From: a phage
Direction: 5' to 3' (one strand)
Sequence record: PZ502447.1
Length of the DNA: 46,837 nucleotides
A model generated the notes under the pieces. That model worked only from the letters and a program-made list of their open reading frames with translations. It ran no database searches and was not told the origin of the DNA. The position numbers were made by a program, and so were the translations under genes. This document shows, in pieces, positions 722 to 32,537 of this stretch; position 1 is the first letter of the stretch, and every line of letters starts with the position of its first letter.

Positions 722-1204
722 TTAAGATACGTGCCTTTCTCGGCTTGCGTGATTTATGTGATAACCAAGTGATACCTCAGCAACAATTCTTGCTTCGCAT
801 GCGGATATGAAACTCTTATAGTGACCAAGACTAATTTTCTTGCCATTATCTGATATCATCGCATGCCAAAGGTTATCACGATTATTGTAGTTTACACCAT
901 TAACGCCTGGGAATGAACGTTTTCTAGTGCCTTGATTCCTTCTATTTTCAGTTGCAGTAACACACCTTAAATTCTCAATGCGATTATCACTTCGATTTCC
1001 GTTTAAGTGATCAATTTGCATGCCTTCAGGAATATCTCCATTATGCATCGTCCAAACAATCCTGTGGATATACATCTTACCAGTCTTTGATACGTAAGTC
1101 TTTACGTATCCGTTACTAGAACCATAACCAGCAGGATTGCCTTTTCCTTTTTTAAAGATTTGACCATCACGATAATCGTAAAGAGAATTCAAGAACTCTT
1201 TCAT
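722..1204 (-). CDS. HNH homing endonuclease (AP2-HNH type)
   Basis: HNH core IDHLNGNRSDNRIENLR; start moved to ATG MKEFL with SD AAGG because the ORF-track start overlaps the upstream gene. AT-rich relative to flanking structural genes. Confidence 0.8.
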   Translation of the reverse strand: MKEFLNSLYDYRDGQIFKKGKGNPAGYGSSNGYVKTYVSKTGKMYIHRIVWTMHNGDIPEGMQIDHLNGNRSDNRIENLRCVTATENRRNQGTRKRSFPGVNGVNYNNRDNLWHAMISDNGKKISLGHYKSFISACEARIVAEVSLGYHINHASRERHVS

Positions 1205-1214
1205 TTGCAACCTT

Positions 1215-1613
1215 TTAGTCAAGACGAACATAGAAACGAACTGGAATAAACCAGCCAGATTTTGACTTCACGACTGGGTGAACTACTCCGCCCTTATAAA
1301 TGTAGCCTGTGTCAAGCATTGTACCATCAAGCATTGATTCTGCCAATTGATTCGCTAATCTCCTTGCGCCATCAACACCATCACCTGGCGAGAAAAAGAC
1401 AGATACCTGAACCATGCCAACATAGTACTTACACTTACGACTTAAGCTGTAGGTTACGGTATCTGCCTCTGTGTAATCGTATTTCAGCCACATACCACCA
1501 TTATTGGGAGGAGAGAAGGCTACGTTTTCATAGGAAATTGGATACCTGACTGGAAACGTTTTAACCAAATCAGTCACAAACCTCCTTGCTGCTAAGGATA
1601 GCTCATACTGCAT
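1215..1613 (-). CDS. tail terminator / tail completion protein (by position)
   Basis: 132 aa ORF between neck proteins and major tail gene; start overlaps the stop of the upstream gene. Confidence 0.4.
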   Translation of the reverse strand: MQYELSLAARRFVTDLVKTFPVRYPISYENVAFSPPNNGGMWLKYDYTEADTVTYSLSRKCKYYVGMVQVSVFFSPGDGVDGARRLANQLAESMLDGTMLDTGYIYKGGVVHPVVKSKSGWFIPVRFYVRLD

Positions 1614-2059
1614 TATCTTTTACTCCTTGCTTCGGCAACTGCCTCTTCGAAGTATCTTCCTAACCTGATATTCACAACGCCAAGGACACCTGCTGGAGCT
1701 TGTCGTGACGCTCCATACTCAAGGTCAGAGGCGTAATCAAGCCTGTTAGTTATGTAGATAACCTTTGTCGCTGGTGAATTAGCCACAGCTCGAGCTTGCC
1801 TTGCCAGATACCTTTTTGTATCTCCACCTGTTTTGTCGTAATCATTCAGAGACTGGGCGGCTGGGGAGTTCGCTGTAATCTGCCAGTTAGCCTTAAACCT
1901 ACCAGTATCAACAGGCGATAAATCAACGATGGCGTTAGCAGCCTTAATTACAGTGCCAGAAACAATATCAGAGAAGTTATCATCAGCTCTATCAATCCAA
2001 TCAGCAATACTATTCGTAAATGTAGCCAACCCACCAATATTTCTAGCCATAGGTAGCAA
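1613..2059 (-). CDS. neck / tail completion protein (HK97 gp10-like, by position and size)
   Basis: 148 aa ORF in the head-tail joining block, translationally coupled to neighbours. Confidence 0.4.
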   Translation of the reverse strand: MLPMARNIGGLATFTNSIADWIDRADDNFSDIVSGTVIKAANAIVDLSPVDTGRFKANWQITANSPAAQSLNDYDKTGGDTKRYLARQARAVANSPATKVIYITNRLDYASDLEYGASRQAPAGVLGVVNIRLGRYFEEAVAEARSKR

Positions 2060-2426
2060 CCCTCCTTAGAATTGGTCTGTAAGCCACTATAGTTCCTGTT
2101 GGTTTGACTGGCCTCGGGTCGACTACAGTGTAAGTTTCATCGTCAACTATAATCCTGTAGCCCTGCAAGATTGGGACTTCAGAAGTGAAAATTCCACGCT
2201 TGTCACCAAACTGGATATATTCGCCATCAATATCTCTGGTTTTAATCTCCCTCACCAGCCCCTTGATTAATGCAGTGCCGCCAGCTACAGGAACCTCAAC
2301 GCCGTCAACAATTTCGACACCACCTTTACCAGTATTCATCGTGAATGTACCATCGCCATCACTAAAGATATTGATGCCCGTGCGCATTAATGATTCTACT
2401 TGGGAGTAATTCATTGGCAACCGCAC
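2043..2426 (-). CDS. head closure / head-tail joining protein (by position)
   Basis: 127 aa ORF in the connector block downstream of the major capsid gene. Confidence 0.4.
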   Translation of the reverse strand: MRLPMNYSQVESLMRTGINIFSDGDGTFTMNTGKGGVEIVDGVEVPVAGGTALIKGLVREIKTRDIDGEYIQFGDKRGIFTSEVPILQGYRIIVDDETYTVVDPRPVKPTGTIVAYRPILRRVATYG

Positions 2427-5864: not shown

Positions 5865-5897
5865 TAAAATCCATCGAATTCATCTTTCATCCTCATG

Positions 5898-6626
5898 TTA
5901 TGACTCCCAATCCGGCACAGCCCAACAACGACAGCCGTATTCCTGACCAGGGAAGAGATCGTTACCGCCCAACCTGAAGCTTAGGCTCTCTTTCTTGAAA
6001 TGGGTCATTCGCTCCCTTTCATCAAGCATGCCGTGCCAAATGTAATGGGTAACACCAGCATCCTCTAGCCTCCTGCGCATGAACGTAGAGTTAATACTGG
6101 ACGTGATGCCTGAGGCTATATTAGCAGTTCTCTTGCGGTAAATCTTGTACCTTTCGTTAATCTTAAGGTAGTCACCACTCTGTATGATTGATGCAGACTG
6201 AATAAAGTCGTCCTTGATATTGTTGAGTAACTTTTCAACGGACTTATTTGATGTGTAAAGCCACTGGTTTAAATCCGGCTGATACCAATCTTCATCTCCA
6301 TTTATACCGTTAAGTCTCAAGTCCATAACTGACTGGACCGAGCCGCCACCAGTCTTGATTGCCAGCACAAGAAACTGCGATGAATTATACCTGTATATTG
6401 ACGCTCCAATTGCCGGAAGTGTAGCTACAACAGAAGCTATAAGCGCTGCTATGATTGCGTCGAGATAATTATCTTCCTGCTCTAGCTCCTCGGCAGTGTC
6501 AATCTTAAGCCGCGTAGCTGATTCTTTCATTGCAGATATTAGCTCAGTTACCGCAACGCTAAGGTTGCGGTTTACCTGATTCTCAATTGTCTGCGGGTAC
6601 TTCCAGCGGGTCTTCACTGGTTTCAT
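5898..6626 (-). CDS. head morphogenesis protein (Mu F-like / SPP1 gp7-like)
   Basis: 242 aa ORF immediately downstream of portal; C-terminal Cys pair GCRCW typical of F-like minor head proteins. The ORF-track start overlaps the portal 3' end, so the true start may be internal. Confidence 0.55.
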   Translation of the reverse strand: MKPVKTRWKYPQTIENQVNRNLSVAVTELISAMKESATRLKIDTAEELEQEDNYLDAIIAALIASVVATLPAIGASIYRYNSSQFLVLAIKTGGGSVQSVMDLRLNGINGDEDWYQPDLNQWLYTSNKSVEKLLNNIKDDFIQSASIIQSGDYLKINERYKIYRKRTANIASGITSSINSTFMRRRLEDAGVTHYIWHGMLDERERMTHFKKESLSFRLGGNDLFPGQEYGCRCWAVPDWES

Positions 6627-7860
6627 TGATTGTTACCTCTGTCTCAATTGAACCTTCACCAATCTTAACCTCAGGGGCTAATGCGCGCAAGGTATCTCGT
6701 GCTTCGTCTGCATCCATCACGCCGTTAGTGATAAGAGCAGTAATTGAATCAACGTTATTCTTCAGTATTTCAGCGCGGTCTTTCTTCGATTCCTGAGCTA
6801 GAGGGTTAAACTCAACTGACCATTCTTGCTCGGTTGTGACGAACGGGATTAAGAACCCAAGAACTGGAAGTAGCTCTTCGTTACGCTTGCGGTCAATCAA
6901 CTTATGGAATGTCTCTAGCGCTGTGTTTTGGCTTGATGACAACCCGCCAACGTTACGACCTTTGAGAATGATTTCATGGATACCGCTCAGAGCAACAATT
7001 CTGTCGAACTTCTTATCGAGGAATCCATCAATCCCACCAATATCCGAGTTAAGAACGCTGTACTCTTCAGCTTCAGCGTCGATACCAATCGCGCGACCAA
7101 CGCCAGAGTTATCATCAACCTGGGCAAGCCTCAACCTGGCCGCACCAAAACCTTCCGCGTCGTCACACAGTTCAGCAAGGCCTTTAGCCTTCCACACCGC
7201 CTGCTGCTTGCGGCGCAATAACTGAGTTGCCAGTTTCTCACACGTCTGATAATCCTTGATTGATTCAAGCAGGTCAGGAACCAGAACGCTAGCACCCCAC
7301 CCGTCATTACCGCGACGCAATGAACTAGGAATCTTCTCGCCATCCATAATGTGAACTCGCGAGTAGTGCACATCATAAAACATGGCGCCACCTTCTGGCG
7401 TGATGCGGTACGTTAATGGCTTACCGAATCGCACATTGCGAGGGTTTTCCTCCTTAGTCTGAACTCTTACCTGGCTACGCTCATAAACGCGAAGTGATTC
7501 AAGTTCCGCGCCTTCACGTACCGGGCTAGTTAGCGCACGATTGTCCTTAACGATAGCCACAATTGCAGAGCCGCCAAATAACCTCGCCCATGACCATGCG
7601 TCAGAGATTGACTCGTTAACCTTCAGGTAATCCCACCTGGACCAGAATTCACCTTCGTCATCAATACCATCGATATGGAAACCTGCGGCGATTGCTGTCT
7701 CCGGTATGGTGTCGACGATGCGGCGTACAATTGAGTTTGATGCGTACAGTGAATCAGCGAAAGGAGGTGTAAGATACGTGTTGCCAAAGTGCCCGTAAAT
7801 CTCGCTACCATCACTGGAGCCACCAAGAAATTGCGTGGCGTATGAATCTGCTTTTACCAT
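6583..7860 (-). CDS. portal protein
   Basis: About 425 aa ORF downstream of the terminase large subunit; start moved to ATG MVKADSY (GGAG SD) because the ORF-track start lies inside the upstream terminator hairpin. Confidence 0.75.
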   Translation of the reverse strand: MVKADSYATQFLGGSSDGSEIYGHFGNTYLTPPFADSLYASNSIVRRIVDTIPETAIAAGFHIDGIDDEGEFWSRWDYLKVNESISDAWSWARLFGGSAIVAIVKDNRALTSPVREGAELESLRVYERSQVRVQTKEENPRNVRFGKPLTYRITPEGGAMFYDVHYSRVHIMDGEKIPSSLRRGNDGWGASVLVPDLLESIKDYQTCEKLATQLLRRKQQAVWKAKGLAELCDDAEGFGAARLRLAQVDDNSGVGRAIGIDAEAEEYSVLNSDIGGIDGFLDKKFDRIVALSGIHEIILKGRNVGGLSSSQNTALETFHKLIDRKRNEELLPVLGFLIPFVTTEQEWSVEFNPLAQESKKDRAEILKNNVDSITALITNGVMDADEARDTLRALAPEVKIGEGSIETEVTINETSEDPLEVPADN

Positions 7861-7918: not shown

Positions 7919-8272
7919 TTACTCGAATTTTACTTCGAACTTGATTGATGATGTTTTCACTCCATTAAGTGTTAACTGGCGAACCTCCCTTCTGACTTCA
8001 TAAAATGCCTCTTTAGTTACTATGTCTTTGTTGATGAAGTATTTAATCCCAGCCTTTTCAACTTTAAAATTATCACCTTTAACGACAAAATCGGTAGGCT
8101 CTATAACTTCGAAATCATAAACACTAAGATTAATTACGCCCAAATAGCCTTTATCATCCTTAACTTTGACGTATTCATTATTACTTCCAGGCGTTCTTGA
8201 TAAGTCATAAATCTTACCAACGGTAAAATCAAAATAACCAGCTTTTTTATACCCTTTAAATACTGCTTTCAT
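7919..8272 (-). CDS. hypothetical protein (moron-like insert between terminase and portal)
   Basis: 117 aa AT-rich ORF with its own upstream promoter module and downstream terminator; Lys/Val/Phe-rich, predicted beta-rich. Confidence 0.6.
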   Translation of the reverse strand: MKAVFKGYKKAGYFDFTVGKIYDLSRTPGSNNEYVKVKDDKGYLGVINLSVYDFEVIEPTDFVVKGDNFKVEKAGIKYFINKDIVTKEAFYEVRREVRQLTLNGVKTSSIKFEVKFE

Positions 8273-8300
8273 TTTTTACTCCTCTCGTTTTCGTGAAGTA

Positions 8301-8347
8301 ACTATAAGCCATCCTTGGCGGCGCGTCTTTAGCAAAACGTGCTATTT
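8301..8347 (-). promoter_or_regulatory. conserved promoter module (inverted-repeat motif plus -10-like TATAGT)
   Basis: Minus-strand AATAGCACGTTTTGCTAAAGAC, then about 22 nt, then TTATAGT, then leader ACGAAAACGAGAGG, then ATG of 7919..8272; overlaps the terminase large subunit stop. Confidence 0.5.
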
Positions 8348-9913
8348 GATGCCAGCGAGGCGCATCATCCTCGATTTAGGGTCTTCTGCAATGTTCAGTA
8401 CCAGGTTGACAGCCATTGTCAAACAGTCTATCTGGTCATCGTGAACATGTGAATCATCTGCCGTGAATGCCGCAATCTCCGTTAGCAAGCCATTAAGCCA
8501 AGTAGCAGACTCCGGAAGGATTACGTTACCAGCTTTAATCTGCGGCAATGCACTCATTACGCGAGTCAGCTTATCGTTATCCGGAACGTACGGCTCGATA
8601 GGCGTTCGCATAACCCTTCCGGCTGATTGAATCAGGCCAATACCAGAGGCTTTCTTCTCGATGATGATTTTACGAAGGATGCCATCTATCTGATTGGATG
8701 CCCTAGCCATCTTCTCGAAATCCAATAACTCAGCCTCTAGCTCAGGCGCTTCCCATTTACCACGGCGCTGGTCCAACAGGTAAATTTTACCATCCTTATA
8801 GCCCCAGAGTTGCAATACGCTAAAGTCACTGTATGACTTTGTTGTCATTGCGGTATCAAGTGTCATGAATCTGTAGTCGTATTTAGCTGGCGGTCGCAGG
8901 GTGTCACTAATGCGCTGGAACCAGTCTACGTTAATCAGGTTGCCGCCTAGGGCTATTGGCTGTTGAAGGTATTGACTAAGAAACGTGTATGGGTCGGCGT
9001 CCTTCATTGCCATCAAGTCGTGAACTGATTCCTTTGCTGGGAAGTAGCTGTAATACTTCACGCCGTCACGCTCAATGTATTCGCTTGATAGAACGTCATC
9101 AATGAATTGCTGCTTAATCCAGTCAGGAAGAGTGTCGACATAATCCTCAGTAACGAGTGCTGGAACCTTAACTACGTCAAACTTAATCCCCATACCGCCG
9201 GATTCCATAAAATTGCTGGTATCAAGAACGTGCAACCTCTGCTGAACGGCGATAATTGGTGTTTCATGCCCCTTAACGGAACTTGCTCTACGTGAGCGAA
9301 TCGTGTTCTTTAGAAGCATATTAACAGCCTCCCTCCTTACATTACTAAGCGCATCATCTGGCTTCAGCGGGTCATCAAGCATTATGCATCCACTGTAATC
9401 ATCGGTCATGTAACCACCACGTGAACCAGTCACCTGGCCAGCCATTGCCTTAGATATCGATTCAAACCTCACCTTTCCATCTTCATCTAGAACCTGAATT
9501 TCGTCATCCCTACATGTGCCAAACTTGCAAGGCCATAACTCCTGAAACTCCTTTGACTTAATGAGGTCGCGTACTCTCTTTGAGTTTCGCTTAACCAATG
9601 AGTCAGAGAACGACAAACTAAGGTTTCTAACCTTCTTAATCTTGATCATGCTATATACAGGGAAATGTATGCTAAAGAGTTCGGTTTTGGCTGATCCAGG
9701 AGCTACGTTTATGATGGTATCCTTTCTCTTACCCTCAAGAATCTCATCTATGACACGACAAAGGTATTTAGCATGCCAATTCATTTTGAATCTCTCGCCT
9801 TGCGTTATCTGAAAGAAGCACCGCAAGAACCCTTCGAAACTATGCTCAGCGATTGCCTTTATAGCCATCTTTTCAGCGTGAGTTAGTTCATCCCAGACTA
9901 TTAATTCACTCAT
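8342..9913 (-). CDS. terL: terminase large subunit
   Basis: 523 aa; Walker A-like VAPGSAKT near the N-terminus; ATG start 2 nt after the upstream HNH stop; followed by the portal block. Confidence 0.85.
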   Translation of the reverse strand: MSELIVWDELTHAEKMAIKAIAEHSFEGFLRCFFQITQGERFKMNWHAKYLCRVIDEILEGKRKDTIINVAPGSAKTELFSIHFPVYSMIKIKKVRNLSLSFSDSLVKRNSKRVRDLIKSKEFQELWPCKFGTCRDDEIQVLDEDGKVRFESISKAMAGQVTGSRGGYMTDDYSGCIMLDDPLKPDDALSNVRREAVNMLLKNTIRSRRASSVKGHETPIIAVQQRLHVLDTSNFMESGGMGIKFDVVKVPALVTEDYVDTLPDWIKQQFIDDVLSSEYIERDGVKYYSYFPAKESVHDLMAMKDADPYTFLSQYLQQPIALGGNLINVDWFQRISDTLRPPAKYDYRFMTLDTAMTTKSYSDFSVLQLWGYKDGKIYLLDQRRGKWEAPELEAELLDFEKMARASNQIDGILRKIIIEKKASGIGLIQSAGRVMRTPIEPYVPDNDKLTRVMSALPQIKAGNVILPESATWLNGLLTEIAAFTADDSHVHDDQIDCLTMAVNLVLNIAEDPKSRMMRLAGIK

Positions 9914-9915
9914 TG

Positions 9916-10422
9916 TTACGCTCTCGTATTTGGGTAGCCTTTATTTTCAGAGCCATGATTTTCATGATATCCGTTCAATTTGTCATACTGTGACCTTGCC
10001 AATGCAGCCTCCTCTATAGTGTCCTTGTAGCATATGAAGACTGTTTTACCAAACTCCATAGCCTGAACAAGCCATCTATTCTCTCTTTTGCACCAGCTTA
10101 CACCGTTTATTCCGCTTTTATTTCTTGATGATAGTGATCTGTTATTTGAGTTCTCTTTATTGCTTACTAACCTTAGGTTCTCTATTCTATTGTCACTTCT
10201 ATTTTGGTTTATGTGATCTATGTACATGCCTTTAGGGATTGATCCATTGTGCATCTCCCACACCACCCTGTGACACCTGTATGCTTTTTGTCTATACTTT
10301 AGTATCACATAGCCAAATTTATCAACTCTTCCAGCCACCTCTCCAACCTTTGATACATTTGCTACTTTTACCTTTCTTATTAAAAGCCCGTCTCTATATT
10401 CAAAAATATCATGCCAATTCAT
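9916..10422 (-). CDS. HNH homing endonuclease (AP2-HNH type)
   Basis: 168 aa; HNH core IDHINQNRSDNRIENLR; N-terminus MNWHDIFEYRDG shared with the HNH at 28006; strongly AT-rich; inserted between the terminase subunit genes. Confidence 0.85.
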   Translation of the reverse strand: MNWHDIFEYRDGLLIRKVKVANVSKVGEVAGRVDKFGYVILKYRQKAYRCHRVVWEMHNGSIPKGMYIDHINQNRSDNRIENLRLVSNKENSNNRSLSSRNKSGINGVSWCKRENRWLVQAMEFGKTVFICYKDTIEEAALARSQYDKLNGYHENHGSENKGYPNTRA

Positions 10423-10618
10423 ATCGTCACCTCGTTAAGTTAGTGCCAATTATCTCATTGATTGGGCCGATTCCTTTAACAAAAAGTGCTAAATTAGCCA
10501 TAATTTCACCAATCCAACCATCACGCCAATTAAGAATCCAGTTGTGAAGCACATTGACGCTATCATGTAATATCCCAATAAAGCCTTAATAACTTTTATC
10601 ATACCGACCCCTATGTTC

Positions 10619-11143
10619 TTACAGCTTACCAATCACAGACTCAAGCGCTTCCTTCATCGTATCTACGTCGTTAGCTGAAGAGTTGTTGCTGATAGTAATC
10701 TCCTGCGGCTTGTCGATTCCAAGCTCTTTGGAAATCATGCCCGGGTTAACGATGCCAGATGCAGCCAACTGATATTTCTGCTCACGAATCACTGAATCAA
10801 TGAACGCAATCACCTCATCATAACCAGCAGACTTTCGCCATTTCTCGATGGCGCCATGGGTAACACCGCAGTAAAGGCAGAAACCTGTTAGCGTGAAGAC
10901 TCGCGGCTTATGCACCAGGCTCTCGGTCACTACACCCTGGAAGCTAGCCGTCTCAATTGCCTTGATCGCCTGACTCTCTGCCCATGAGAAGTATTTCACA
11001 GCCAGGTCAAATAGCTGCTCTGGTGTCATGATTCGGTTTTTGGCTAGCGTTGTAATGTCTGAGTACTTTTTATTGTACATGGCTTTAAAGTTGCCAGAGC
11101 GGACCTTTTCTTGCGCCTGACTGGTGAAGTTTTCGTCTTTCAT
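10619..11143 (-). CDS. terS: terminase small subunit
   Basis: 174 aa, ATG with GGAGG SD; helix-turn-helix-like segment FTLTGFCLYCGVTHGAIEKW resembling small-terminase DNA-binding domains; located upstream of the terminase large subunit. Confidence 0.6.
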   Translation of the reverse strand: MKDENFTSQAQEKVRSGNFKAMYNKKYSDITTLAKNRIMTPEQLFDLAVKYFSWAESQAIKAIETASFQGVVTESLVHKPRVFTLTGFCLYCGVTHGAIEKWRKSAGYDEVIAFIDSVIREQKYQLAASGIVNPGMISKELGIDKPQEITISNNSSANDVDTMKEALESVIGKL

Positions 11144-13208: not shown

Positions 13209-13631
13209 TCAGATTTTGTTAATTTGCTCAAACTTCTCAAACCAGAAAACAACTGGATCCTCCACTATGGAGATGAGGCCGAACCGCTCTGCCGTGCGAA
13301 AATTCATGCTGCTCTTACGCCCGCGAGCGACTTGAAGAGACACCTGTTCCCTGAACATTTCAAGGGAATAGCAAGTTTTCATGAGGTTGCATGGAGCACA
13401 TGCAGGGTAAAGGTTTTCCATTCGATCAGCTTGTGGTCGATTAAACTCACCTGTCGCCTTCAGCTTGAAAGTTCCTTTCTCCGCTGCCTTCATGCATACC
13501 TCAGATTTACGTAGCACCGGTTCAACATGGTCAGCATGCCAGCCTTTCTCAGGTAGTTCACACCCACAATAAGCGCAGCGACCACCGAACTTGCCCTTCA
13601 ACTCTTCCCTTTGAGATTTGCTTAATTTCAT
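13209..13631 (-). CDS. HNH endonuclease (classic zinc-finger HNH)
   Basis: 140 aa; CAYCGC...HADHVEP...CAPCN motif arrangement of the HNH fold. Confidence 0.75.
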   Translation of the reverse strand: MKLSKSQREELKGKFGGRCAYCGCELPEKGWHADHVEPVLRKSEVCMKAAEKGTFKLKATGEFNRPQADRMENLYPACAPCNLMKTCYSLEMFREQVSLQVARGRKSSMNFRTAERFGLISIVEDPVVFWFEKFEQINKI

Positions 13632-13641: not shown

Positions 13642-13821
13642 TTAAATTTTATTCAATTGATCAAGAATCTCGAAAGCCAGTTCTCGAGCTTGCTCTTCAT
13701 TTAAGTGGATAGTATGAACCTTAGGTTCATCATGCAAACCGAAAGCCTGGGCTATGATAAATGTTGTGTAACCATCGAAGTTGTTAGCCTGGAGCTTGGC
13801 GGCTGATTGTCTAAAACGCAT
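13642..13821 (-). CDS. hypothetical protein
   Basis: ORF-track start is TTG; an ATG 2 codons in has a GAGGAA SD and is used here (59 aa). Confidence 0.45.
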   Translation of the reverse strand: MRFRQSAAKLQANNFDGYTTFIIAQAFGLHDEPKVHTIHLNEEQARELAFEILDQLNKI

Positions 13822-21469: not shown

Positions 21470-21540
21470 TTTTGAATCCTCTGTTGTTTTCGATGTAGTA
21501 ATTATGCCGGATTACTCCGGCGATTGTTTAGCAATTCGTG
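21470..21540 (-). promoter_or_regulatory. conserved promoter module
   Basis: Minus-strand AATAGCACGAATTGCTAAAC, then CATAAT, then leader CATCGAAAACAACAGAGGA, then ATG of 21299..21469. Confidence 0.55.
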
Positions 21541-22088
21541 CTATTTATTACGTGCATTACCAAAGCAGAGGTTCCATCAATATCACCATCTACAACATGA
21601 ACGTCAATTTCTCTTGCGCAGACACCGCGAATGTAGGAGCGGCTATCTCCATCAAAAGTATAGCCAGGCCTAAAAAGTCTAATCAAAGTAACTTCAACCC
21701 CTGAATCAATGAGAGTATTAATCTCGCTAGCGAAGCCACCATCAGCACAGATATAGCAACCATCACCAAGTGATTGCGCTAGCCTTTTACCGAAAACATC
21801 ATCACCAAAGACTGGCTTCATAACTGACTCACTAATCCAAATCATAAATTCACGAACCGTCATTCCACCAAGAAATTCATGTGGTGATTCTTTGTACTCT
21901 CGGTCATCGTAATTCTTAATAAATTCATCAAACTCATCGCTTGATAGTATTCCTTTTGCAACATTAAACATTGGTGACTTGAATGAAACCTTATCCTTGC
22001 AAATTCCAAGATTAACAATGATATCTGCAACTGTATCTTTTCCAGCACCAGGGGGTGCATTAAGGATGATTAACTTTTTCATTTTCAC
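21528..22088 (-). CDS. deoxynucleoside monophosphate kinase-like P-loop kinase
   Basis: 186 aa; P-loop NAPPGAGKDT and overall resemblance to T4 gp1 dNMP kinase (GKDT..AD, RPG motifs). Could alternatively be a polynucleotide kinase domain. Confidence 0.55.
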   Translation of the reverse strand: MKMKKLIILNAPPGAGKDTVADIIVNLGICKDKVSFKSPMFNVAKGILSSDEFDEFIKNYDDREYKESPHEFLGGMTVREFMIWISESVMKPVFGDDVFGKRLAQSLGDGCYICADGGFASEINTLIDSGVEVTLIRLFRPGYTFDGDSRSYIRGVCAREIDVHVVDGDIDGTSALVMHVINSTNC

Positions 22089-22558
22089 TCTCCGTGAGAT
22101 TCGCAGTCTTTAGGTGGTACTTTATATTCACAAACTGACATTACAGTATATCCGCAATTCCTTAGGTGACTGATAACATTTGGATTATCCTCAAAGATTA
22201 TTACATTTTTCTTATCACCTTTACATAAATCATTTAACCACTTTTCTTTAATTATGTAGTCTTTGCTATTGTCAAATCGACTCCTCATATATATTCCATC
22301 ATACTCAATATCATTACACTGAAGCCATTCAAGCGTCATACATTCGACTTCGTCACTTCTTGAAGTCATGATGTAAACTGGCGATAACTCAGCTAACGCA
22401 TTCATCATGTTTATCATTGGAATTATCGGTGAATCTCCAGAACAGGCTCTATTGTAATCACTCCAACTTGAAGTCAAGTGAAGGTCACTAGATGGTAAGA
22501 GGTGGCTTCTATGTTCATTGTTAGCAATAGTTCCATCAATATCAAACACGTAAATCAT
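22085..22558 (-). CDS. HAD-superfamily phosphatase
   Basis: 157 aa; N-terminal FDIDGT motif (DxDGT, HAD motif I); start overlaps the kinase gene. Confidence 0.6.
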   Translation of the reverse strand: MIYVFDIDGTIANNEHRSHLLPSSDLHLTSSWSDYNRACSGDSPIIPMINMMNALAELSPVYIMTSRSDEVECMTLEWLQCNDIEYDGIYMRSRFDNSKDYIIKEKWLNDLCKGDKKNVIIFEDNPNVISHLRNCGYTVMSVCEYKVPPKDCESHGE

Positions 22559-24468: not shown

Positions 24469-24690
24469 TTATTCAAAATCCTCCGGGCAATCTTTTTTCA
24501 TATCTGCGATATCTGCAACCATGCGGTCGCGCCACGTTTCGATATCGGTTCGCAAGTAATCTTCCTCAAAACTGTAATCAAGGCACCAGGCCAAATCCCA
24601 AACATCACCTTTATATCCAGCCTTGTGTAATTCCTGGGCCGCCATCGCCTGAAAGAGTTCCCATTGCTTGTCAAAAGTTAAAATTGCCAT
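24469..24690 (-). CDS. hypothetical protein
   Basis: 73 aa acidic, Trp-rich ORF. Confidence 0.4.
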   Translation of the reverse strand: MAILTFDKQWELFQAMAAQELHKAGYKGDVWDLAWCLDYSFEEDYLRTDIETWRDRMVADIADMKKDCPEDFE

Positions 24691-24695
24691 TACTC

Positions 24696-24890
24696 TTATA
24701 CCTCATCAAATTTTTCGCCGAATTCGTTTTTAACAGTTTCCAGATCATATTTGTAAGTTGGGCTAACTTCGAATGCATATGTGCAGTCTTCAATGTCAAC
24801 CAAAACATAACCATCTTCAGTTACTTGCATCTCGTAGATGTAGCCAGTCTTGCGTGATTCGTAGAATTTACCAGTATAGATAGTAGCCAT
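24696..24890 (-). CDS. hypothetical protein
   Basis: 64 aa ORF directly downstream of a full promoter module and conserved leader. Confidence 0.5.
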   Translation of the reverse strand: MATIYTGKFYESRKTGYIYEMQVTEDGYVLVDIEDCTYAFEVSPTYKYDLETVKNEFGEKFDEV

Positions 24891-24974
24891 TTTCTTTCTC
24901 TCTTTGTGTGTTTCGTTTCGATGAGTTTATAATACACCAACTCACCAATTCGTCTTTAGCAATTCGTGCTATTT
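24891..24974 (-). promoter_or_regulatory. conserved promoter module
   Basis: Minus-strand AATAGCACGAATTGCTAAAGAC, 22 nt, TATTAT, then leader CATCGAAACGAAACACACAAAGAGAG, then ATG at 24890. Confidence 0.55.
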
Positions 24975-25388: not shown

Positions 25389-25389
25389 A

Positions 25390-27480: not shown

Positions 27481-27954
27481 ATGTGTGAAATTGACAAGCG
27501 AACTATCAACGGCAATAACGGAACCATCCGCACGCAAGACAAGAAACAGCGCAAACGACCGTCAGGCTACTACGTATTGAAAGATGAAGTAAAGGCTGGG
27601 CTACGAGCTCGTCTGGAGATGGTTCTTGATTTCTACGGCACGAAGGCCAATATCGCCAAGCAGTTAAATGTATCTCACCAGACTGTAGAGCAATGGTTTG
27701 ATCGCGGGATGATTTCGGCTCGAGGTGCCCAGAGGGCTCACAATGCATACAAGCGAAATAAGGAAGGCTTTAGAGCTACGTTCTGCCGACCAGACCTGCA
27801 ATTCGACGGAAACGGTAAGCCATTAACGCTTAGATGCAAGAAACGCCATATGCTGCGGGTTGTTACAGAAGCTGAACTAGCAACAAAGCCACCATGTCGA
27901 CCATGGCGCAAGAATAAGATTGCCAACGAAGCAGCACGAAAAGCTAAAGATTAA
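27481..27954 (+). CDS. HTH DNA-binding protein (putative transcriptional regulator)
   Basis: 157 aa, ATG with GAGGTAA SD; helix-turn-helix-like segment TKANIAKQLNVSHQTVEQWFDRG; basic N- and C-termini. Confidence 0.5.
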   Translation: MCEIDKRTINGNNGTIRTQDKKQRKRPSGYYVLKDEVKAGLRARLEMVLDFYGTKANIAKQLNVSHQTVEQWFDRGMISARGAQRAHNAYKRNKEGFRATFCRPDLQFDGNGKPLTLRCKKRHMLRVVTEAELATKPPCRPWRKNKIANEAARKAKD

Positions 27955-28005
27955 ATAATTGGATGTGCCATAATCGGTACATCCTTTTTTATTGGGGAGA
28001 AGAAA

Positions 28006-28485
28006 ATGAACTGGCATGATTATTTTTACTATGTAGATGGCAAATTGCATTGGAAGATTAGCACTGCAAGACGTGTTAAGGTTGGCGATGAGTGCAACTC
28101 ACTATCTACATCTGGCTATTACAAAGTGTCTGTTAATGGCTTTAGGACTTATGTACATAGAGTTGTGTGGGAGATGTTTAATGGAGAACTTCAAAATGGC
28201 GACTACATTGATCATATAAACCATAACAAATTAGATAACAGAATAGAAAACCTAAGAGTAACAACAAATCAAGGTAACTCAAGAAATTGCAAGCTTAGCG
28301 TTTTATCAACAACTGGTTATTGTGGAGTAGCAAAGCTAAATCACGGAAAATTTAAGGCTCACATCAAGGTTGACGGTAAGCAGCTACACCTTGGGAACTT
28401 CGATACTCCAGAGCAGGCGTATAAAGTAAGAATTGAAGCAGAGAGAAAATGCAACTTTCACGAAAATCACGGGTTAAGCAAATGA
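28006..28485 (+). CDS. HNH homing endonuclease (AP2-HNH type)
   Basis: 159 aa; IDHINHNKLDNRIENLR HNH core; N-terminus MNWHDYFYYVDGKLHWK paralogous to the HNH at 9916; inserted directly upstream of primase with an ATGA overlap. Confidence 0.85.
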   Translation: MNWHDYFYYVDGKLHWKISTARRVKVGDECNSLSTSGYYKVSVNGFRTYVHRVVWEMFNGELQNGDYIDHINHNKLDNRIENLRVTTNQGNSRNCKLSVLSTTGYCGVAKLNHGKFKAHIKVDGKQLHLGNFDTPEQAYKVRIEAERKCNFHENHGLSK

Positions 28486-29405
28486 ATTACGATAAGAATG
28501 AAGTTATACCTAAGATGGCCGGATTGTGGAAATCATTTTATGCAAAGGAACTTGGTTGGAATGATAGACACCTAAGTAAGAAGCACGGACCATGCCCATA
28601 CTGCTTTGGCACTGACAGATTCAGATTTACCGACGAAATAGGCAGTGAAAAAGGGAATGGCGCGGCAGTTTGTTCGAAATGCGGAAGTGACTCCGGTATA
28701 GGATGGGTCATGAAGTGCACTGGATCGTCCTTCGCAGATTCAGTAAATTTGCTTGGTGACTGGCTGAACTTAACACCAATTGAGGTTATAGTTAAAGCAA
28801 ACAAGCAAGCATCAAGAACCCAGCTCTACAAAATGGGCGCCCAGATTGACCACGAAAGATGTTTAGAGATTATGGAAAGAACAGAAAGAGTAGAATCAAC
28901 TCCACTCAGTATATACGAGGGTATCTATAGCGAATTTGGTTTTGATGTTGGCAGGACGAAATCAGGCGAACTAATACACGCAGTACCGTGCTTTATGGCT
29001 TATAGTGACGGCATATCAGATGATATGTGCAATGTAATGTTTATCAATGAAGATGGAGATGTTAGCTATGCTGCAAAAGATTATACTCGCCAGTCTGTTT
29101 CTATTATTGGCACCTTTAAAGATGATGAGTACGCTTATCTGGTCGATAATTGGATTGATGGTGTTCGCGTTCATCTTGCTACTGGAAATCGCTGCGTGCT
29201 TGTTTGCCACTCCAGCTACAACATGGAAATGGTTGCTTATGCGCTTATGAACTACAAGTTACGCGTCGCTTGTACTCGCAACTCTTTTGATTTACTTGCC
29301 GTTGCTGACGATCGCAATCTTGATATTGTAATTCCAAATGATGGTAATTTTTTCAAGTCAGGCATAAGAAAGAGAATATACAAGGCAAACGAATTACTAG
29401 ACTAA
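28482..29405 (+). CDS. DNA primase (zinc-finger type)
   Basis: CxxC...CxxC zinc-binding motif (CPYCFG...CSKCGS) near the N-terminus. Start placed at ATG MNYDKNEV overlapping the HNH stop; the ORF track starts it 33 nt earlier. Confidence 0.55.
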   Translation: MNYDKNEVIPKMAGLWKSFYAKELGWNDRHLSKKHGPCPYCFGTDRFRFTDEIGSEKGNGAAVCSKCGSDSGIGWVMKCTGSSFADSVNLLGDWLNLTPIEVIVKANKQASRTQLYKMGAQIDHERCLEIMERTERVESTPLSIYEGIYSEFGFDVGRTKSGELIHAVPCFMAYSDGISDDMCNVMFINEDGDVSYAAKDYTRQSVSIIGTFKDDEYAYLVDNWIDGVRVHLATGNRCVLVCHSSYNMEMVAYALMNYKLRVACTRNSFDLLAVADDRNLDIVIPNDGNFFKSGIRKRIYKANELLD

Positions 29406-29426: not shown

Positions 29427-29492
29427 ATACCTGAAAGATGATACAATCCACTTTAGCAATTAGTGCTACTTTACAAATGGAGACTTTACACA

Positions 29493-32021
29493 ATGGCAAT
29501 TTATGACTTAGGAACAGCGTCGCTAGCCGCAAATGGCGAGGTTACTGGCGTCGGGACAACATGGAAAGCACCACTTACACTGATTCGTGTAGGTGCAACC
29601 ATTATTTTTAAAACCAGTCCACTTAAAATTTATACCATCTCTGAAATCATCAGCGACACTCAGATTAATGTTTACAACCCTAATTCTGAAACTGTTCCTG
29701 CCGGAACTGGTTACGCGATTCTTGCTCACGATGGCATTACCGTTCAGGGTTTAGCTCAGGATGTTGCTGAGACTCTGCGTTACTATCAGTCAAAGGAGAC
29801 TTCTATTGAAAGTTTGCTGCAATTTATCGGGCAAGATAATTTCGATTGGCCTCGCTTCGAGCAATTAGCAAACCAATCAGTAACAGGGGCTGCCGAGTCT
29901 TTAGCTAGCCAGATTGCTGCCGCAGAGAGCGCCGCTACTGCCGTTAGCGCAAGGGATACAACCACATCAGCGAGAGATGCTACTATTGAGGCAATTAATA
30001 GTGCTGGTGATGCTGGCACAATGGTAACTCTTGCCAATATGGGTATCGGTGGCTCGCTTACACCTCAGTTGACAGAACTTGACTGGAATACGTTTGATTT
30101 CAAATCAGGAGCTAGATACCTATGCCAAAAGTCAGCAATGATCAACGCTCCAGAGGTGATAAATATAACCTACTCCGATAGCACGCTTTGTGCGATTGAG
30201 GTTAAGTCAGCAAGGGGGATTACTGGTGTTAAGAACATACAAGTGTCAGCATCAACCGGATCCGATAATACGTACAGGGTGATTGATTTAACTCAGACTG
30301 GCACGGCACCAAACAAAACTTACTATTCAAGAGAGGCTCTTTATGTCGCATCAGGAAGTCAGGTTGGCGGCGCTAGCGCCCAGCGAGTAAGAGGCTTGCT
30401 TGATGTTTACTCAAAAAATGAGACTTTTCAAAAATCATTGAATTTATCTGATGTTGCAGATAAAGGATTGGCAAGAACCAACCTTGATGTTTACTCAAAG
30501 GGTGAGGTGTCATCAATTTTAAATACAGATTCAAAAAGCACATCAAGCTATAACGGATCAATACCTTCAGCAATAGAGGCTGCTGGTAATGGTGGCTCAG
30601 TAGTTATAAGCCCAGGAACTTATGAGAGTAATAACTACTATTTTGCTGGCAGGAACATATCAGGCTCTGGATACAATACTGTAATAAGTGTTAAACCTTT
30701 TGAAACCGGACTCACCTCAACGCTATCGGTTCCGCACTGGAGGCAAAAGCATTTATCCGATTTACAGTTTACAGGGACGACAATACAAGCAAATAACGGT
30801 TTTCAATTCCCAGATGACCCTTATGCCGGTAGGGTTGTTATGGATAGGTTGTACTTTAATGACCTGGATGTTGGCATAAGGAAAAATGCTGGCAACATTG
30901 GAAATACCTACAGAAACGTAAGTATTAGAAATGCGAATTACGGGTATCGAGCCAAAGCTCATGACGAAATGCATATAGGAGCGGACACTTTATACGGGTA
31001 CCACTCAGATACAATCTCTCAATATTCAGTAATGCTAGATGCGACAAGCACAAGTAGCGCAAAGAACCCTGGCGCTGGAGGAATTGGTGGGTGGTGGATT
31101 AGGGATTCAATAATGGAGGCCTCTGCTGGCGGCGGTATAAGGTTAAAGAATAAACCTGGAGATTGCCCAACATCACCTTGCGGATTGTCTAACGTATGGT
31201 TTGAAGCGATAGCAACTGGGGGGGCAATTAACGTAGGTGATGGAGCTGAGCTACCAAGGGTTTTGAAGCTTATTGATACGTCTGTTTTCTTTGCTGAGCA
31301 CTCCTACATTAATAACATTGAGTTGTCTAACTCAAGCCTTGTTACTTACGGTTGCAGGTTTGATAACGCTGATGGGCATCAAGATTTCTCTCTTGATTCG
31401 AACAGTATTATTTTTGCTAAGGATGCATACCTGAATGGCTCTTCAACATCAAACGTTATAGTTGAGTCACTGGTATCACAGACAGCCAAGATAACGGGTA
31501 CATCTGACTTATCTGTTAGAGGATATGTTACTAAGGGTCGAGTTTTTAATCCCGATTCCGGAACTGTTTTAGTCAGGAGGCCTTTTGGTACTGGTGGGAA
31601 CAACTTTGGTGGAACAGGGTCGGCAAGTGAAGGTTCTGATACAAGGGGTATACACTCGCAATCATCTGGATACTACGAATTGGCTGGTGCGGCTAATTAC
31701 GAATTGATAAATGGTGGCTTTAATATAACTTCCGGCAAATGGTATGCTTGGGGTATTTCTGCAAACAGGATTCAAGGCGGTGCTGATGGTATTATAAACA
31801 TTTTTGGTAGCGCATCATTAGGCCGTGTGTTTACTGAGGGTGGTAAGTGGGTTCATACATTTGGAGTTGGTCAGGCTTCGGTTTCTGGCGTTGCAAACCT
31901 TAACATTAACCTCAATGGATTAACTGGTATGGTATTAAGCCTTGCTGATTATTTTGTTGTAGAATTTGATAATCAAAGGGACGCCTTGATATTTGCAAAC
32001 TCAAGAGTTTCTCTTGCATAA
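29493..32021 (+). CDS. tail fibre / tailspike protein with probable beta-helix domain
   Basis: About 842 aa from ATG MAIYDLG (GGAGAC SD); Gly/Asn/Ser/Thr-rich with repetitive N-x-x-I/V segments typical of right-handed beta-helix fibres; Ala-rich coiled segment near the N-terminus. Confidence 0.6.
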   Translation: MAIYDLGTASLAANGEVTGVGTTWKAPLTLIRVGATIIFKTSPLKIYTISEIISDTQINVYNPNSETVPAGTGYAILAHDGITVQGLAQDVAETLRYYQSKETSIESLLQFIGQDNFDWPRFEQLANQSVTGAAESLASQIAAAESAATAVSARDTTTSARDATIEAINSAGDAGTMVTLANMGIGGSLTPQLTELDWNTFDFKSGARYLCQKSAMINAPEVINITYSDSTLCAIEVKSARGITGVKNIQVSASTGSDNTYRVIDLTQTGTAPNKTYYSREALYVASGSQVGGASAQRVRGLLDVYSKNETFQKSLNLSDVADKGLARTNLDVYSKGEVSSILNTDSKSTSSYNGSIPSAIEAAGNGGSVVISPGTYESNNYYFAGRNISGSGYNTVISVKPFETGLTSTLSVPHWRQKHLSDLQFTGTTIQANNGFQFPDDPYAGRVVMDRLYFNDLDVGIRKNAGNIGNTYRNVSIRNANYGYRAKAHDEMHIGADTLYGYHSDTISQYSVMLDATSTSSAKNPGAGGIGGWWIRDSIMEASAGGGIRLKNKPGDCPTSPCGLSNVWFEAIATGGAINVGDGAELPRVLKLIDTSVFFAEHSYINNIELSNSSLVTYGCRFDNADGHQDFSLDSNSIIFAKDAYLNGSSTSNVIVESLVSQTAKITGTSDLSVRGYVTKGRVFNPDSGTVLVRRPFGTGGNNFGGTGSASEGSDTRGIHSQSSGYYELAGAANYELINGGFNITSGKWYAWGISANRIQGGADGIINIFGSASLGRVFTEGGKWVHTFGVGQASVSGVANLNINLNGLTGMVLSLADYFVVEFDNQRDALIFANSRVSLA

Positions 32022-32026
32022 AAAAA

Positions 32027-32050
32027 GCCCCGAAAGGGGCTTTATCTTTT
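32027..32050. terminator. bidirectional intrinsic terminator
   Basis: Hairpin GCCCC-GAAA-GGGGC flanked by an A-run upstream and a T-run downstream; between the plus-strand stop at 32021 and the minus-strand stop at 32052. Confidence 0.65.
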
Positions 32051-32051
32051 A

Positions 32052-32537
32052 TCAGTAGTAAAGATGTTCCGCTTGCTTTCTTGCCTTTAATGCGGACTCA
32101 AACGTTTCGAATCGTCCTAGATGTATTTTTCTACCGTTTACAGTTATGGACGCATCGTATTTTCCCTTATTAAAATGTACACCACCGCACCCCGTCTTAT
32201 TGTTTACTCTTACACCTAAATTGTGCATGTTGCCTGTTCTGTTGGTTTTCAGTAGGTTTGCGTAGGCATTATTTGCTCTATTCCTGTCAATATGGTCAAT
32301 TTCAATATCACCACTCAAAGAACCTTCAACGAAGGCAACCGCAAGCCTGTGAGCTTGGAATCGCTCTCCGTTGATGTTTATGCCTATGTATCCATTCCTA
32401 AGCGAACCTGAATTCGAACCTACATCTACACGCCGCGATGTGGGAATAATCCATGAAAAGATCCCTGATTCTGTACCGTAGGATAGGTGACGCATTGCTG
32501 CGTCAACCACATCTTTTGTTATGTCTTTGTATTTCAT
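32052..32537 (-). CDS. HNH homing endonuclease
   Basis: 161 aa; IDHIDRNRANN HNH core and NKTGCGGVHFNKGKYDASITVNGRKIHLGRFETFESA AP2-like tail. Confidence 0.8.
   Translation of the reverse strand: MKYKDITKDVVDAAMRHLSYGTESGIFSWIIPTSRRVDVGSNSGSLRNGYIGININGERFQAHRLAVAFVEGSLSGDIEIDHIDRNRANNAYANLLKTNRTGNMHNLGVRVNNKTGCGGVHFNKGKYDASITVNGRKIHLGRFETFESALKARKQAEHLYY

Follow-up and report, generated by a model that had tools for sequence, protein, structure and literature searches.

HNH endonuclease genes at conserved gene junctions of a T1-like coliphage: four probable free-standing homing endonuclease genes and one chimeric insertion

The coliphage genome analyzed here, that of a T1-like siphophage (Drexlerviridae, Braunvirinae), carries five HNH endonuclease genes, which lie between conserved genes and not inside an intron or intein. 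Four of them (H1, H2, H4 and H5) are, with a probability of roughly 0.8 as judged from sequence comparison, free-standing homing endonuclease genes of the I-HmuI-like HNH_3 plus AP2 family. The fifth, H3, is a chimeric insertion, apparently gained once by illegitimate recombination in a lineage common to phage ES. At least three of the five genes show signs of recent horizontal spread, and as a set the combination is absent from every sequenced relative examined. The analysis covered a stretch of 46,837 nucleotides (PZ502447.1), hereafter the window, the features of which are collected in Table 1.

Table 1. Features of the window discussed in the text (a dot marks features without strand).
Feature	Position	Strand	Location and evidence
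Major tail gene	40-717		PHROGs
Major tail translation-initiation region	691-717	-	GGAGG 710-706; ATT ATT 702-697 replacing the usual ATG; in-frame TTG at 717
H1, HNH_3 + AP2-like free-standing endonuclease gene	722-1204	-	Tail terminator/major tail junction; PF13392 HNH_3, E=5e-24, 84.1 bits; phrog_99, 6e-51
Tail terminator gene	1215-1613		PHROGs
Terminase large subunit (TerL) gene	8342-9913		PHROGs
TerL 5' part moving with H2, co-conversion-like tract	9300-9913	-	Identity profile
H2, HNH_3 + AP2-like endonuclease gene	9916-10422	-	TerS/TerL junction; PF13392 HNH_3, E=2.5e-22, 78.7 bits
37-aa hydrophobic ORF, MIKVIKALLGYYMIASMCFTTGFLIGVMVGLVKLWLI	10489-10602	-	Lies within 124-128 nt of additional sequence between TerS and H2
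Terminase small subunit (TerS) gene	10619-11143		PHROGs
H3, classic zinc-finger HNH gene	13209-13631	-	Among small early genes; PF01844, E=9e-5, 23 bits; phrog_2118, 7e-55
Chimeric 3' end of H3	13209-13240	-	Copy of the upstream gene's 3' end (compare 13642-13673)
Regulator gene	27481-27954		PHROGs
Terminator-like hairpin	27961-27984	+	Follows the regulator gene and directly precedes the H4 insert
H4, HNH_3 + AP2-like endonuclease gene	28006-28485	+	Upstream of primase; PF13392 HNH_3, E=3e-18, 65.6 bits
Primase gene	28482-29405		PHROGs; start from the ATGA overlap with H4
Primase zinc-binding N-terminus allele moving with H4, co-conversion-like tract	28482-28800	+	Identity profile
Tail fibre gene	29463-32021	+	PHROGs
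Reduced-identity segment relative to ES around H5	31700-32800	.	Identity profile
Bidirectional terminator	32024-32043	.	Common to the tail fibre gene and the SSB-H5 unit
H5, divergent HNH_3 + AP2-like endonuclease gene	32052-32537	-	Inserted after the last codon of SSB, ahead of its original stop codon and terminator; PF13392 HNH_3, E=4.5e-8, 33.0 bits
SSB gene	32541-32969		PHROGs

An earlier note on this DNA had listed five HNH ORFs and named the genes that flank them. All five were found at their coordinates as full-length ORFs, all are HNH nucleases by Pfam, and the names of the flanking genes all agree with the PHROGs assignments. Searches of the window with 17 HNH queries (tblastn) yielded no HNH genes or remnants beyond the five, Pfam and PHROGs searches of its other unannotated ORFs yielded no nuclease of the GIY-YIG, LAGLIDADG or a similar family, and an NCBIfam search gave no informative matches. 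The nearest relative in the database is phage ES, about 90% identical to the window, which contains a frameshifted HNH remnant. In relatives, HNH paralogues are found at further junctions, namely TerL/portal, capsid/neck, tape measure/minor tail, exonuclease/recombinase, and tail tip assembly protein I/host-specificity protein J. A clustering of genes with HNH and AP2 domains near terminase, replisome and structural genes has been described (PMC10448857).

H1, H2, H4 and H5 all match the Pfam family PF13392 (HNH_3; gathering cut-off 24.8 bits), H5 being the weakest of the four, and H3 matches PF01844 (HNH; cut-off 21.4 bits) with no match to HNH_3 and is an unrelated zinc-finger HNH. The paralogy that had been noted for H2 and H4 is real (40% identity, E=6e-33) but was drawn too narrowly, as each of the four HNH_3 genes is a paralogue of the other three (27-41% identity). 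In the alignment, H51, H70, N78, N82, N91 and N94 are invariant columns and D69 is present in 15 of 16 sequences. The conserved D-H and N of the HNH_3 proteins align with D74, H75 and N96 of I-HmuI, and none of the catalytic residues (Asp-His and Asn) has been lost. A single-sequence search with H2 matched I-HmuI (PDB 1U3E) at E=1e-4. This is the independent value for the similarity; a profile match to the same structure at 1e-38 was discarded as circular, I-HmuI being already part of the alignment.

The AP2 domain assigned to these proteins is not reached by Pfam at threshold, but it is backed by profile and fold searches. PF00847 (AP2) is the sole Pfam family to match each of the four C-termini, with 13-21 bits, under its gathering threshold of 33.3 bits. 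A search with the family profile matched the AP2 domains of WRI1 (E=4.5e-5) and TEM1 (E=0.006). In a structure model built from the four window paralogues, which is poor as a whole (mean pLDDT 50.5) and usable in its C-terminal domain only, residues 108-148 are predicted to form strand-strand-strand-helix (pLDDT ~70), and the best Foldseek matches of this part were the AP2 domains 7et4, 1gcc (rmsd 0.8 over 47 columns) and 7wq5. These comparisons support a C-terminus that is AP2-like in all four HNH_3 proteins, with a predicted three-stranded sheet plus helix. The combination of an N-terminal HNH and a C-terminal AP2 domain defines a recognised family of homing endonucleases (PMC10448857).

In base composition and in their coupling to neighbours the five genes are less uniform than had been claimed. 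H4, H1 and H2 (GC 0.375-0.377) rank third to fifth lowest among the 44 window ORFs with 100 aa or more (mean 0.442, sd 0.038), H5 (0.420, 10th lowest) is moderately AT-rich at most, and H3 (0.473) exceeds the mean. The AT-richness ascribed to all five thus holds for H1, H2 and H4, which are among the five most AT-rich of these ORFs, but not for H5 and H3. Tight coupling to the downstream gene holds for H2, the stop codon of which lies 2 nt ahead of the TerL ATG, and for H4, the TGA of which overlaps the primase ATG as ATGA, but not for H5, which has no downstream gene. By close spacing of stop and start codons the HNH genes are set into existing operons, so that their expression probably disturbs the neighbours little.

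None of the five genes is universal at its junction. Among the matching phage records, the H1 junction is filled in 1 of 683 and the H5 junction in 0 of 365, ES included, while H4 itself was seen in 10 of 561 and H3 in 2 of 174; for H2 occupancy varies. Relative to relatives with an empty site, the genes are precise one-gene inserts between intact flanking ORFs, which supports their earlier reading as mobile insertions.

H3 stands apart from the other four. It has the residues CxxC...CxxC, D-H, N-L and CxxCN, is 100% identical in ES, where the protein is annotated as hypothetical, and in AN_ECEAS, the only two records that have it at this junction, and, compared with TR1 and RobRod40, is a 408-nt insert between the phrog_7411 gene and the gene that follows it. 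About 30 nt at its end are duplicated from the upstream gene and exist as a single copy in these two empty-site phages; the C-termini read ...WFEKFEQINKI (stop) in H3, ...AFEILDQLNKI (stop) in the upstream gene and ...WFEKYQEENEKK (stop) in the H3 homologue of phage Bas77. The identity of H3 to its counterpart in ES, considered as evidence of transfer, was rejected, because it falls inside a longer near-identical block and is therefore uninformative on mobility. Of the view of H3 as a mobile homing gene, the insertion relative to TR1 and RobRod40 stands; for homing of H3 we found no evidence.

We give an even chance to the alternative that H3 is an accessory nuclease and not a homing gene, taken up once from an unrelated phage, belonging to a family that is terminase-associated elsewhere, and kept either for a benefit or as a passenger. 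Its different family (PF01844, phrog_2118), its GC content above the genome mean and its presence in just 3 genomes of the group are in line with this, and the chimeric 3' end with its short duplication points to an illegitimate, not a homology-guided, insertion. Beyond the ES lineage, the nearest homologues (85% aa identity) come from Bas77-80 and HC6, phages that do not belong to the relatives of the window; the Bas77 gene is found two ORFs upstream of TerL. The sporadic spread of H3 homologues over many phage families (178 records), however, is equally expected of a selfish element, and a role in packaging is without positional support in the window, where H3 lies 2 kb and about 9 ORFs upstream of TerS.

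Recent transfer is indicated for H4 and H2. H4 is 98-99% identical at the amino acid level in RobRod40, CEB_EC3a, TR1 and IME542. Measured against ES, its insert comprises positions 27994-28481, and against Rao1 it ends at the primase ATG; the hairpin that precedes it in the window stands directly ahead of primase in the empty site of ES. The 5' tract of the primase gene is 97-100% identical in the four divergent phages that carry H4, as against 65-69% in Rao1, which lacks it, and cannot be aligned to ES. Past about residue 95 all primase alleles reconverge, and the N-terminal alleles co-vary with H4.

H2 is 98% identical at the amino acid level in Rao1, TR1 and TR2. The TerL 5' tract that accompanies it is 97-99% identical to these three phages, except for an 84% patch at 9500-9599, compared to 76-77% at 9000-9299 and 84-94% further 3'. 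Relative to ES, TerL is 99-100% identical at its 3' end (8300-8699) and 54-82% identical at 9200-9899, and the N-terminal alleles of the TerL protein co-vary with H2. On the other side of H2, the segment 10492-10615 is missing from all 7 relatives fetched; the 37-aa ORF within it has a single database match (phage A110b, 85%) and none in PHROGs.

In a comparison of the window with TR1, TR2, Rao1, IME542, RobRod40 and CEB_EC3a (median identity in 100-nt windows 76-87%), the sole tracts of at least 400 nt with at least 97% identity were 9601-10400, covering H2 and the 5' part of TerL, and about 27951-28850, covering H4 and the 5' part of primase. Both run asymmetrically into the downstream gene. 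H2 and H4 were transferred very recently along with the 5' portion of that gene, in a way that resembles co-conversion.

The insert that contains H5 extends exactly from 32056 to 32544 relative to TR2, and likewise relative to Rao1. The SSB stop codon is separated from the start of H5 by 3 nt, and the bidirectional terminator, which in the empty-site phages TR2 and ES directly follows the SSB stop codon, lies beyond H5. An orthologue with 75.8% amino acid identity is found at the same SSB/fibre junction in the Hanrivervirus phage E6 (Tempevirinae), the exonuclease, recombinase and SSB of which are only 50-52% identical to those of the window; a scan of IMG/VR yielded no H5 orthologue closer than 45% identity. 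Around H5, identity to ES drops from 98-100% at 31400-31699 to 84-90% at 31700-31999, is 76-91% at 32583-32799 and returns to 100% at 32800-32899. We read this segment as donor flanks that were probably brought in together with H5.

H1 shows fewer signs of movement. Its start is the ATG at 1204 and not at 1231, as conserved in its orthologues, which open with MKDFLNSLYDYRDG, and the insert comprises positions 685-1210 relative to the empty sites of TR2, ES and IME542. Orthologues at the same junction are found only in RobRod40 (75% aa identity) and in phiEB49 (71%, or 70.7%; Rogunavirinae), where the flanking proteins are 58-62% identical to those of the window, a modest margin for the nuclease. 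Relative to RobRod40 there is no tract of high identity (gene 73%, flanks 72-82% at the nucleotide level), and H1 may be a copy that is old, inherited vertically or no longer active.

Next to H1, the translation-initiation region of the major tail gene has ATT at a spacing of 6 nt from GGAGG. The window, RobRod40, phiEB49 and DTL, genomes of two subfamilies, share an identical 18-nt motif, TTGGAGGTGTATTATTGC; ahead of the conserved major tail N-terminus, phiEB49 and DTL lack any in-frame ATG, GTG or TTG. A start codon has no synonymous codon, a non-ATG start being its lone alternative. It is conceivable, if rather doubtful, that the major tail gene, which encodes an essential and abundantly made structural product, lacks a canonical start codon and that its AUU-start allele is a cleavage-resistant target of H1; if true, a homing endonuclease has driven an essential late gene to a rare initiation codon. 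An H1-type nuclease gene lies directly upstream of the motif in three of the four genomes. The idea that the H1 cassette itself created the ATT start is weakened by DTL, which has the ATT allele without an HNH gene there.

General mosaic recombination also takes place in this phage group, as high-identity blocks without connection to an HNH gene are common in the comparison with ES (at least 97% identity in 37% of 100-nt windows). One might hence regard the HNH genes as inactive relics and ascribe their patchiness and tracts to the usual homologous recombination of T1-like phages that infect the same cell, a process in which the nucleases have no part. The missing transfer tract of H1 would fit such an origin, and the remnant in ES shows that decay does occur. 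We nevertheless consider this improbable: all five ORFs are full-length with their catalytic residues intact, and in six independent comparisons the near-identical tracts of a 46.8 kb sequence are the two HNH cassettes only. Further, the same junction is filled in different subfamilies, where H5 is clearly more conserved than its flanks and H1 weakly so, by a smaller margin; for H3 this comparison is uninformative.

The junction of H2 holds the same HNH gene, another one or none, depending on the phage, and is empty in most relatives, among them DTL, IME542, IME253, G8, SU57 and 43 MK907xxx isolates, despite homologous TerS and TerL. Some HNH gene is present there in Rtp, BEK2/3, 2725-N35, ES, the Piccard phages and RobRod40. 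That H2 is a terminase-partnered packaging accessory of the HK97 gp74 type and not a selfish homing gene, a role the earlier note had considered and for which its place between TerS and TerL, its proximity to the TerL start, the presence of some HNH gene there across many lineages and the compatibility of homing and packaging (PMC10448857) might speak, is very unlikely, most relatives having no gene at that site; H2 moreover belongs to the I-HmuI/AP2 family and not to the small zinc-finger HNH family, lies within a recent-transfer tract, has merely 30-43% identity to the HNH genes of ES and RobRod40 at this site, and occurs in a group annotated as headful packagers (note, TR1 record).

For the four HNH_3 genes as homing endonuclease genes, we infer target genes and mechanism from tract geometry alone. 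A phage carrying the nuclease gene would enter a cell together with a relative devoid of it, and in this recipient the nuclease would nick or cut a conserved stretch of the adjacent essential gene. For H4 the target is probably the part of primase that encodes the zinc finger, for H2 the ATPase-coding 5' region of TerL, for H5 the C-terminal DIPF-stop region of SSB and for H1 the terminator/major-tail junction. The phage's own exonuclease VIII-like, Erf-like and SSB functions would then repair the break with the carrier genome as template, copying the nuclease gene together with the adjoining part of the target gene, which would constitute a cleavage-resistant allele. Free-standing homing endonucleases of phages are known to have cleavage sites in flanking genes and to cause co-conversion of flanking sequence (PMC2988022).

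Conceptually none of this is new, as the 'homing endonuclease infestation' of phage genomes and the occurrence of HNH-AP2 genes beside essential genes are well described. In T1-like phage genomes, the HNH cassettes mark sites of DNA exchange, and the 5' parts of TerL and primase have a history that differs from that of the rest of the genome. Because of this separate history they are unsuited to naive phylogeny or taxonomy, a caution also raised by the BASEL authors (PMC8594841). H4 with the zinc-finger region of primase and H2 with the 5' region of TerL offer testable pairs of nuclease and target, for which natural sensitive and resistant alleles exist in sequenced phages.

Among known systems, H3 resembles the HK97 gp74 type (structural representative PDB 4H9D), being a small zinc-finger HNH protein with CxxC...CxxC, and its 85% identical homologues in Bas77-like phages lie just upstream of the terminase genes. 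It differs in its weak match to 4H9D (E=0.46), in not being terminase-adjacent and in being missing from almost every relative that has the same terminase. H2, in contrast, is terminase-adjacent yet absent from most relatives, and is of the HNH_3/AP2 and not the zinc-finger PF01844 type; further, the HK97 gp74 type is that of cos phages, unlike the annotated headful packaging of the group.

In their N-terminal region and HNH motif, the four HNH_3 proteins align with I-HmuI of phage SPO1 along the entire length of the latter, and D-H and N are conserved. I-HmuI is intron-encoded and has a helix-turn-helix C-terminal domain, whereas the window genes are free-standing, intergenic and AP2-like. 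In their AP2-type C-terminus of three strands plus helix and their sporadic, phage-borne occurrence they are like the HNH-AP2 family of homing endonucleases, reportedly described by Magnani et al. in 2004. With mobA and mobE of T4 and 'intronless homing' (PMC2988022) they share the form of promoter-less cassettes between conserved essential genes, patchy among relatives, with a putative target in the neighbouring gene and not at the insertion point, and with flanks that appear co-converted. They differ from mobA and mobE in occurring in T1-like siphophages and in having another C-terminal DNA-binding domain, and homing is here deduced from comparative genomics alone. A further likeness is to the annotated HNH genes of related Drexlerviridae (TR1, TR2, Rao1, RobRod40, CEB_EC3a, IME542 and rtp20 of Rtp), where counterparts of H2 and H4, with 98-99% amino acid identity and at the same junctions, already carry the annotation 'HNH (homing) endonuclease'. 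The window differs from these annotated sets in H1, known from two other genomes only, and in H5, which at the SSB junction is new for Braunvirinae.

In megablast searches, the window falls among the T1-like siphophages of the family Drexlerviridae, subfamily Braunvirinae, with Escherichia phage ES as the closest record (∼90% identity across ∼90% of the window); the relatives TR1, TR2, Rao1, IME542, RobRod40 and CEB_EC3a have median identities of 76–87% in 100-nt windows. The five HNH ORFs of the earlier note, here called H1 to H5 by position, are all present (5/5), every flanking gene it had named is confirmed by PHROGs, and the start of H1 at 1204 is conserved in its orthologs. We found no sixth HNH gene or HNH remnant in the window.

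H1, H2, H4 and H5 score above the threshold for Pfam HNH_3 (PF13392), belong to phrog_99 and have pairwise identities of 27–41%. The paralogy proposed for H2 and H4 (40% identity) is in fact wider than claimed, as all four are mutual paralogs. H3 is unrelated to them; it belongs to phrog_2118, scores slightly above the threshold for the classic HNH family (Pfam PF01844) and contains two CxxC pairs. As a single sequence, H2 matches I-HmuI (PDB 1U3E) with E=1e-4. A 16-sequence alignment with I-HmuI contains invariant His and Asn columns which, together with D-H, correspond to I-HmuI D74, H75 and N96. The division into four AP2/HNH proteins and one zinc-finger HNH protein stands for the HNH types; the C-terminal AP2 domain is sub-threshold in Pfam (13–21 bits, cut-off 33.3), but profile and fold matches agree with it. 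Structures of plant AP2 domains are hit by a profile of the family (WRI1, E=4.5e-5), and the C-terminus of a structure model, which is poor as a whole, forms a strand-strand-strand-helix unit with AP2 domains as best fold matches. The AT-richness ascribed to all five genes holds for H1, H2 and H4 (third to fifth lowest GC among 44 ORFs of at least 100 residues), is borderline for H5 and does not apply to H3. The lowest-GC ORFs in the window are non-HNH genes. A virion structural protein gene in the TerL/portal slot has a GC of 0.33, and a PNK-phosphatase/dNMP-kinase pair (21528–22558) one of 0.35–0.39.

Searches with each junction and both its flanks against 50,697 phage records showed that the inserts are patchy, not universal. 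At the H1 junction, records matching both flanks span ∼920–1,070 nt (close relatives ∼1,043–1,067), compared to 1,574 nt in the window. Between TerS and TerL, the terminase subunit genes, other HNH genes occur in Rtp, BEK2/3, 2725-N35, ES and Piccard phages, and the junction is empty in DTL, IME542, IME253, G8, SU57 and 43 MK907xxx isolates. Further HNH paralogs are found in relatives at TerL/portal, capsid/neck, tape measure/minor tail and exonuclease/recombinase, as well as between tail tip assembly protein I and host-specificity protein J. At exonuclease/recombinase, an HNH gene is present intact in TR1, TR2 and IME542 and as a frameshifted HNH_3 remnant in ES (24496–24962); the window has none.

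Features of the window and their occurrence in other phages
Feature	Position (strand)	Location	Other phages
H1	722-1204 (-)	tail terminator / major tail	occupied in 1/683 records (RobRod40)
H2	9916-10422 (-)	TerS / TerL	same gene (98% aa) in Rao1, TR1, TR2, TR3, CY1
H3	13209-13631 (-)	small early genes	among 174 records, ES and AN_ECEAS only
H4	28006-28485 (+)	regulator / primase	occupied in 10/561 records
H5	32052-32537 (-)	SSB / tail fibre	occupied in 0/365 records, ES among the empty
TTGGAGGTGTATTATTGC motif region, major tail ATT	691-717 (-)		L006 11106-11130; L010 ~1985-2010; L091 1513-1533
Head morphogenesis gene, Mu-F / SPP1 gp7-like (phrog_324, E=1e-56)	5891-6636	between portal and prohead protease	whole segment missing in 7/7 Braunvirinae relatives fetched
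Virion structural protein gene	7919-8272	TerL / portal	slot holds HNH genes in IME542 and RobRod40
37-aa ORF	10489-10602 (-)	between TerS and H2	segment (~125 nt) missing in 7/7 relatives fetched
Kinase gene	21528-22088		aligns with ES, TR1, TR2, Rao1; not with IME542, RobRod40, CEB_EC3a
Phosphatase gene	22085-22558		aligns with ES only

All five genes (5/5) are clean one-gene insertions. H1 replaces the 22-nt spacer between its neighbors, H2 is separated from the TerL ATG by 2 nt, and the H3 insertion measures 408 nt. H4 lies 3' of the regulator's terminator hairpin, has its own ribosome-binding site and overlaps primase at ATGA. H5 sits between the final SSB codon (…DIPF) and the old TGA with its terminator; the insert supplies a new TAA to SSB, H5 starts 3 nt further on, and the old TGA has become its stop. 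The 37-aa ORF next to H2 is strongly hydrophobic and has its own AGGGG ribosome-binding site; its sole match is in phage A110b (85%), whose TerS/TerL junction is HNH-free.

Seven relatives were compared to the window, and their identity was mapped base by base. With the six more distant ones (all except ES), the whole 46.8 kb contain just two tracts that keep ≥97% identity over 400 nt or more: 9601–10400, comprising H2 and the TerL 5' end (with TR1, TR2, Rao1), and ∼27951–28850, comprising H4 and the first ∼320 nt of primase (with TR1, IME542, RobRod40, CEB_EC3a). On the upstream side, both have a sharp boundary at the edge of the insert; on the other side they continue into the downstream gene. 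The zinc-binding N-terminus of primase (∼95 residues) is 98–100% identical among H4 carriers; in phages without an HNH gene at this junction, its identity to the window falls to 75% (Rao1) and 61% (ES), and in TR2, where another HNH gene occupies the junction, to 59%. Beyond ∼95 residues all alleles converge. TerL follows the same pattern: it is 97–99% identical to TR1 over 9300–9913, except for an 84% patch, and only 54–82% identical to ES over 9200–9899. Free-standing homing endonucleases have their cleavage site within a flanking gene, and their genes enter the recipient along with a resistant allele (PMC2988022); judged from sequence, the geometry of both tracts is what such enzymes would produce. 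TerL as a whole (8300–9913) is a three-part mosaic, with 99–100% identity to ES in the 3' ∼400 nt, 97–99% to TR1, TR2 and Rao1 in the 5' ∼600 nt, and at most ∼85% to either in the middle.

H5 shows the mirror image of this pattern: compared to ES, a ∼1.1-kb zone of 76–91% identity is centered on the insert, with 98–100% on either side, which suggests import along with donor flanks. Its orthologs (74–76%) occur only in Hanrivervirus (Tempevirinae) records. Phage E6 has one at exactly the same place, with an identical TAA-NNN-ATG join after SSB, and its SSB, recombinase and exonuclease are merely 50–52% identical to those of the window. The MG0656xx GenBank records, among them E6 and A110b, are unannotated, 'UNVERIFIED' and labeled Campylobacter phage. 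They are Drexlerviridae close to coliphages (E6 is classified as Tempevirinae, Hanrivervirus), and the host label looks doubtful.

Orthologs of H1 are confined to RobRod40 (75%) and phiEB49 (71%, Rogunavirinae), and in each phage the gene separates tail terminator from major tail; the phiEB49 flanks are 58–62% identical to the window. As the identity map against the relatives shows no recent-transfer tract at H1, this gene may be an older copy or an inactive one. In the window, RobRod40, phiEB49 and DTL, the adjacent major tail gene opens with GGAGGTGTATT-ATT-GCxCAT; HNH-less relatives such as TR2 have …AAGGAAAATAT-ATG-GCCCAT. The ATT lies 6 nt past GGAGG, and all four phages, which represent two subfamilies, share the 18-nt motif TTGGAGGTGTATTATTGC unchanged. 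In phiEB49 and DTL, the reading frame contains no ATG, GTG or TTG ahead of the conserved N-terminus, so that AUU is the best candidate for the start codon. An H1-type gene directly precedes the ATT-start gene in 3/4 phages; because DTL has the allele without an HNH gene, a link to H1 is suggestive only.

H3 is clearly an acquired gene. Its end (13209–13240) repeats that of the gene upstream (13642–13673), covering ∼7 last codons, the stop and the downstream ribosome-binding site, and its homolog in Bas77 has a different C-terminus. H3 therefore arrived via illegitimate recombination, which fused the end of the target gene onto the HNH ORF. The family is scattered across many phage groups; beyond the ES lineage, the nearest homologs (85% aa) belong to phages other than the window's relatives. 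H3 may serve homing, packaging or another role. The Bas77 homolog lies two ORFs upstream of TerL, and H3 itself lies ∼2 kb from TerS, with above-average GC, within a long block identical to ES.

For H2, which abuts TerL, the earlier note had considered help in packaging. Homing and packaging roles are not necessarily exclusive (PMC10448857), but a packaging role is disfavored because H2 belongs to the wrong HNH family, the TerS/TerL junction is empty in most relatives with the same terminase genes, and several unrelated HNH genes occupy it in other phages.

Proteins with an N-terminal HNH and a C-terminal AP2 domain are a recognized homing endonuclease family, and homing endonuclease genes are known to cluster next to terminase, replisome and structural genes (PMC10448857). 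In addition, existing annotations already list genes with 98–99% identity to H2 and H4 as HNH (homing) endonucleases, so that the finding is correct yet ordinary. It illustrates a known mechanism, for which the genome-wide tract test and the cross-subfamily junction matches provide unusually clean comparative evidence.
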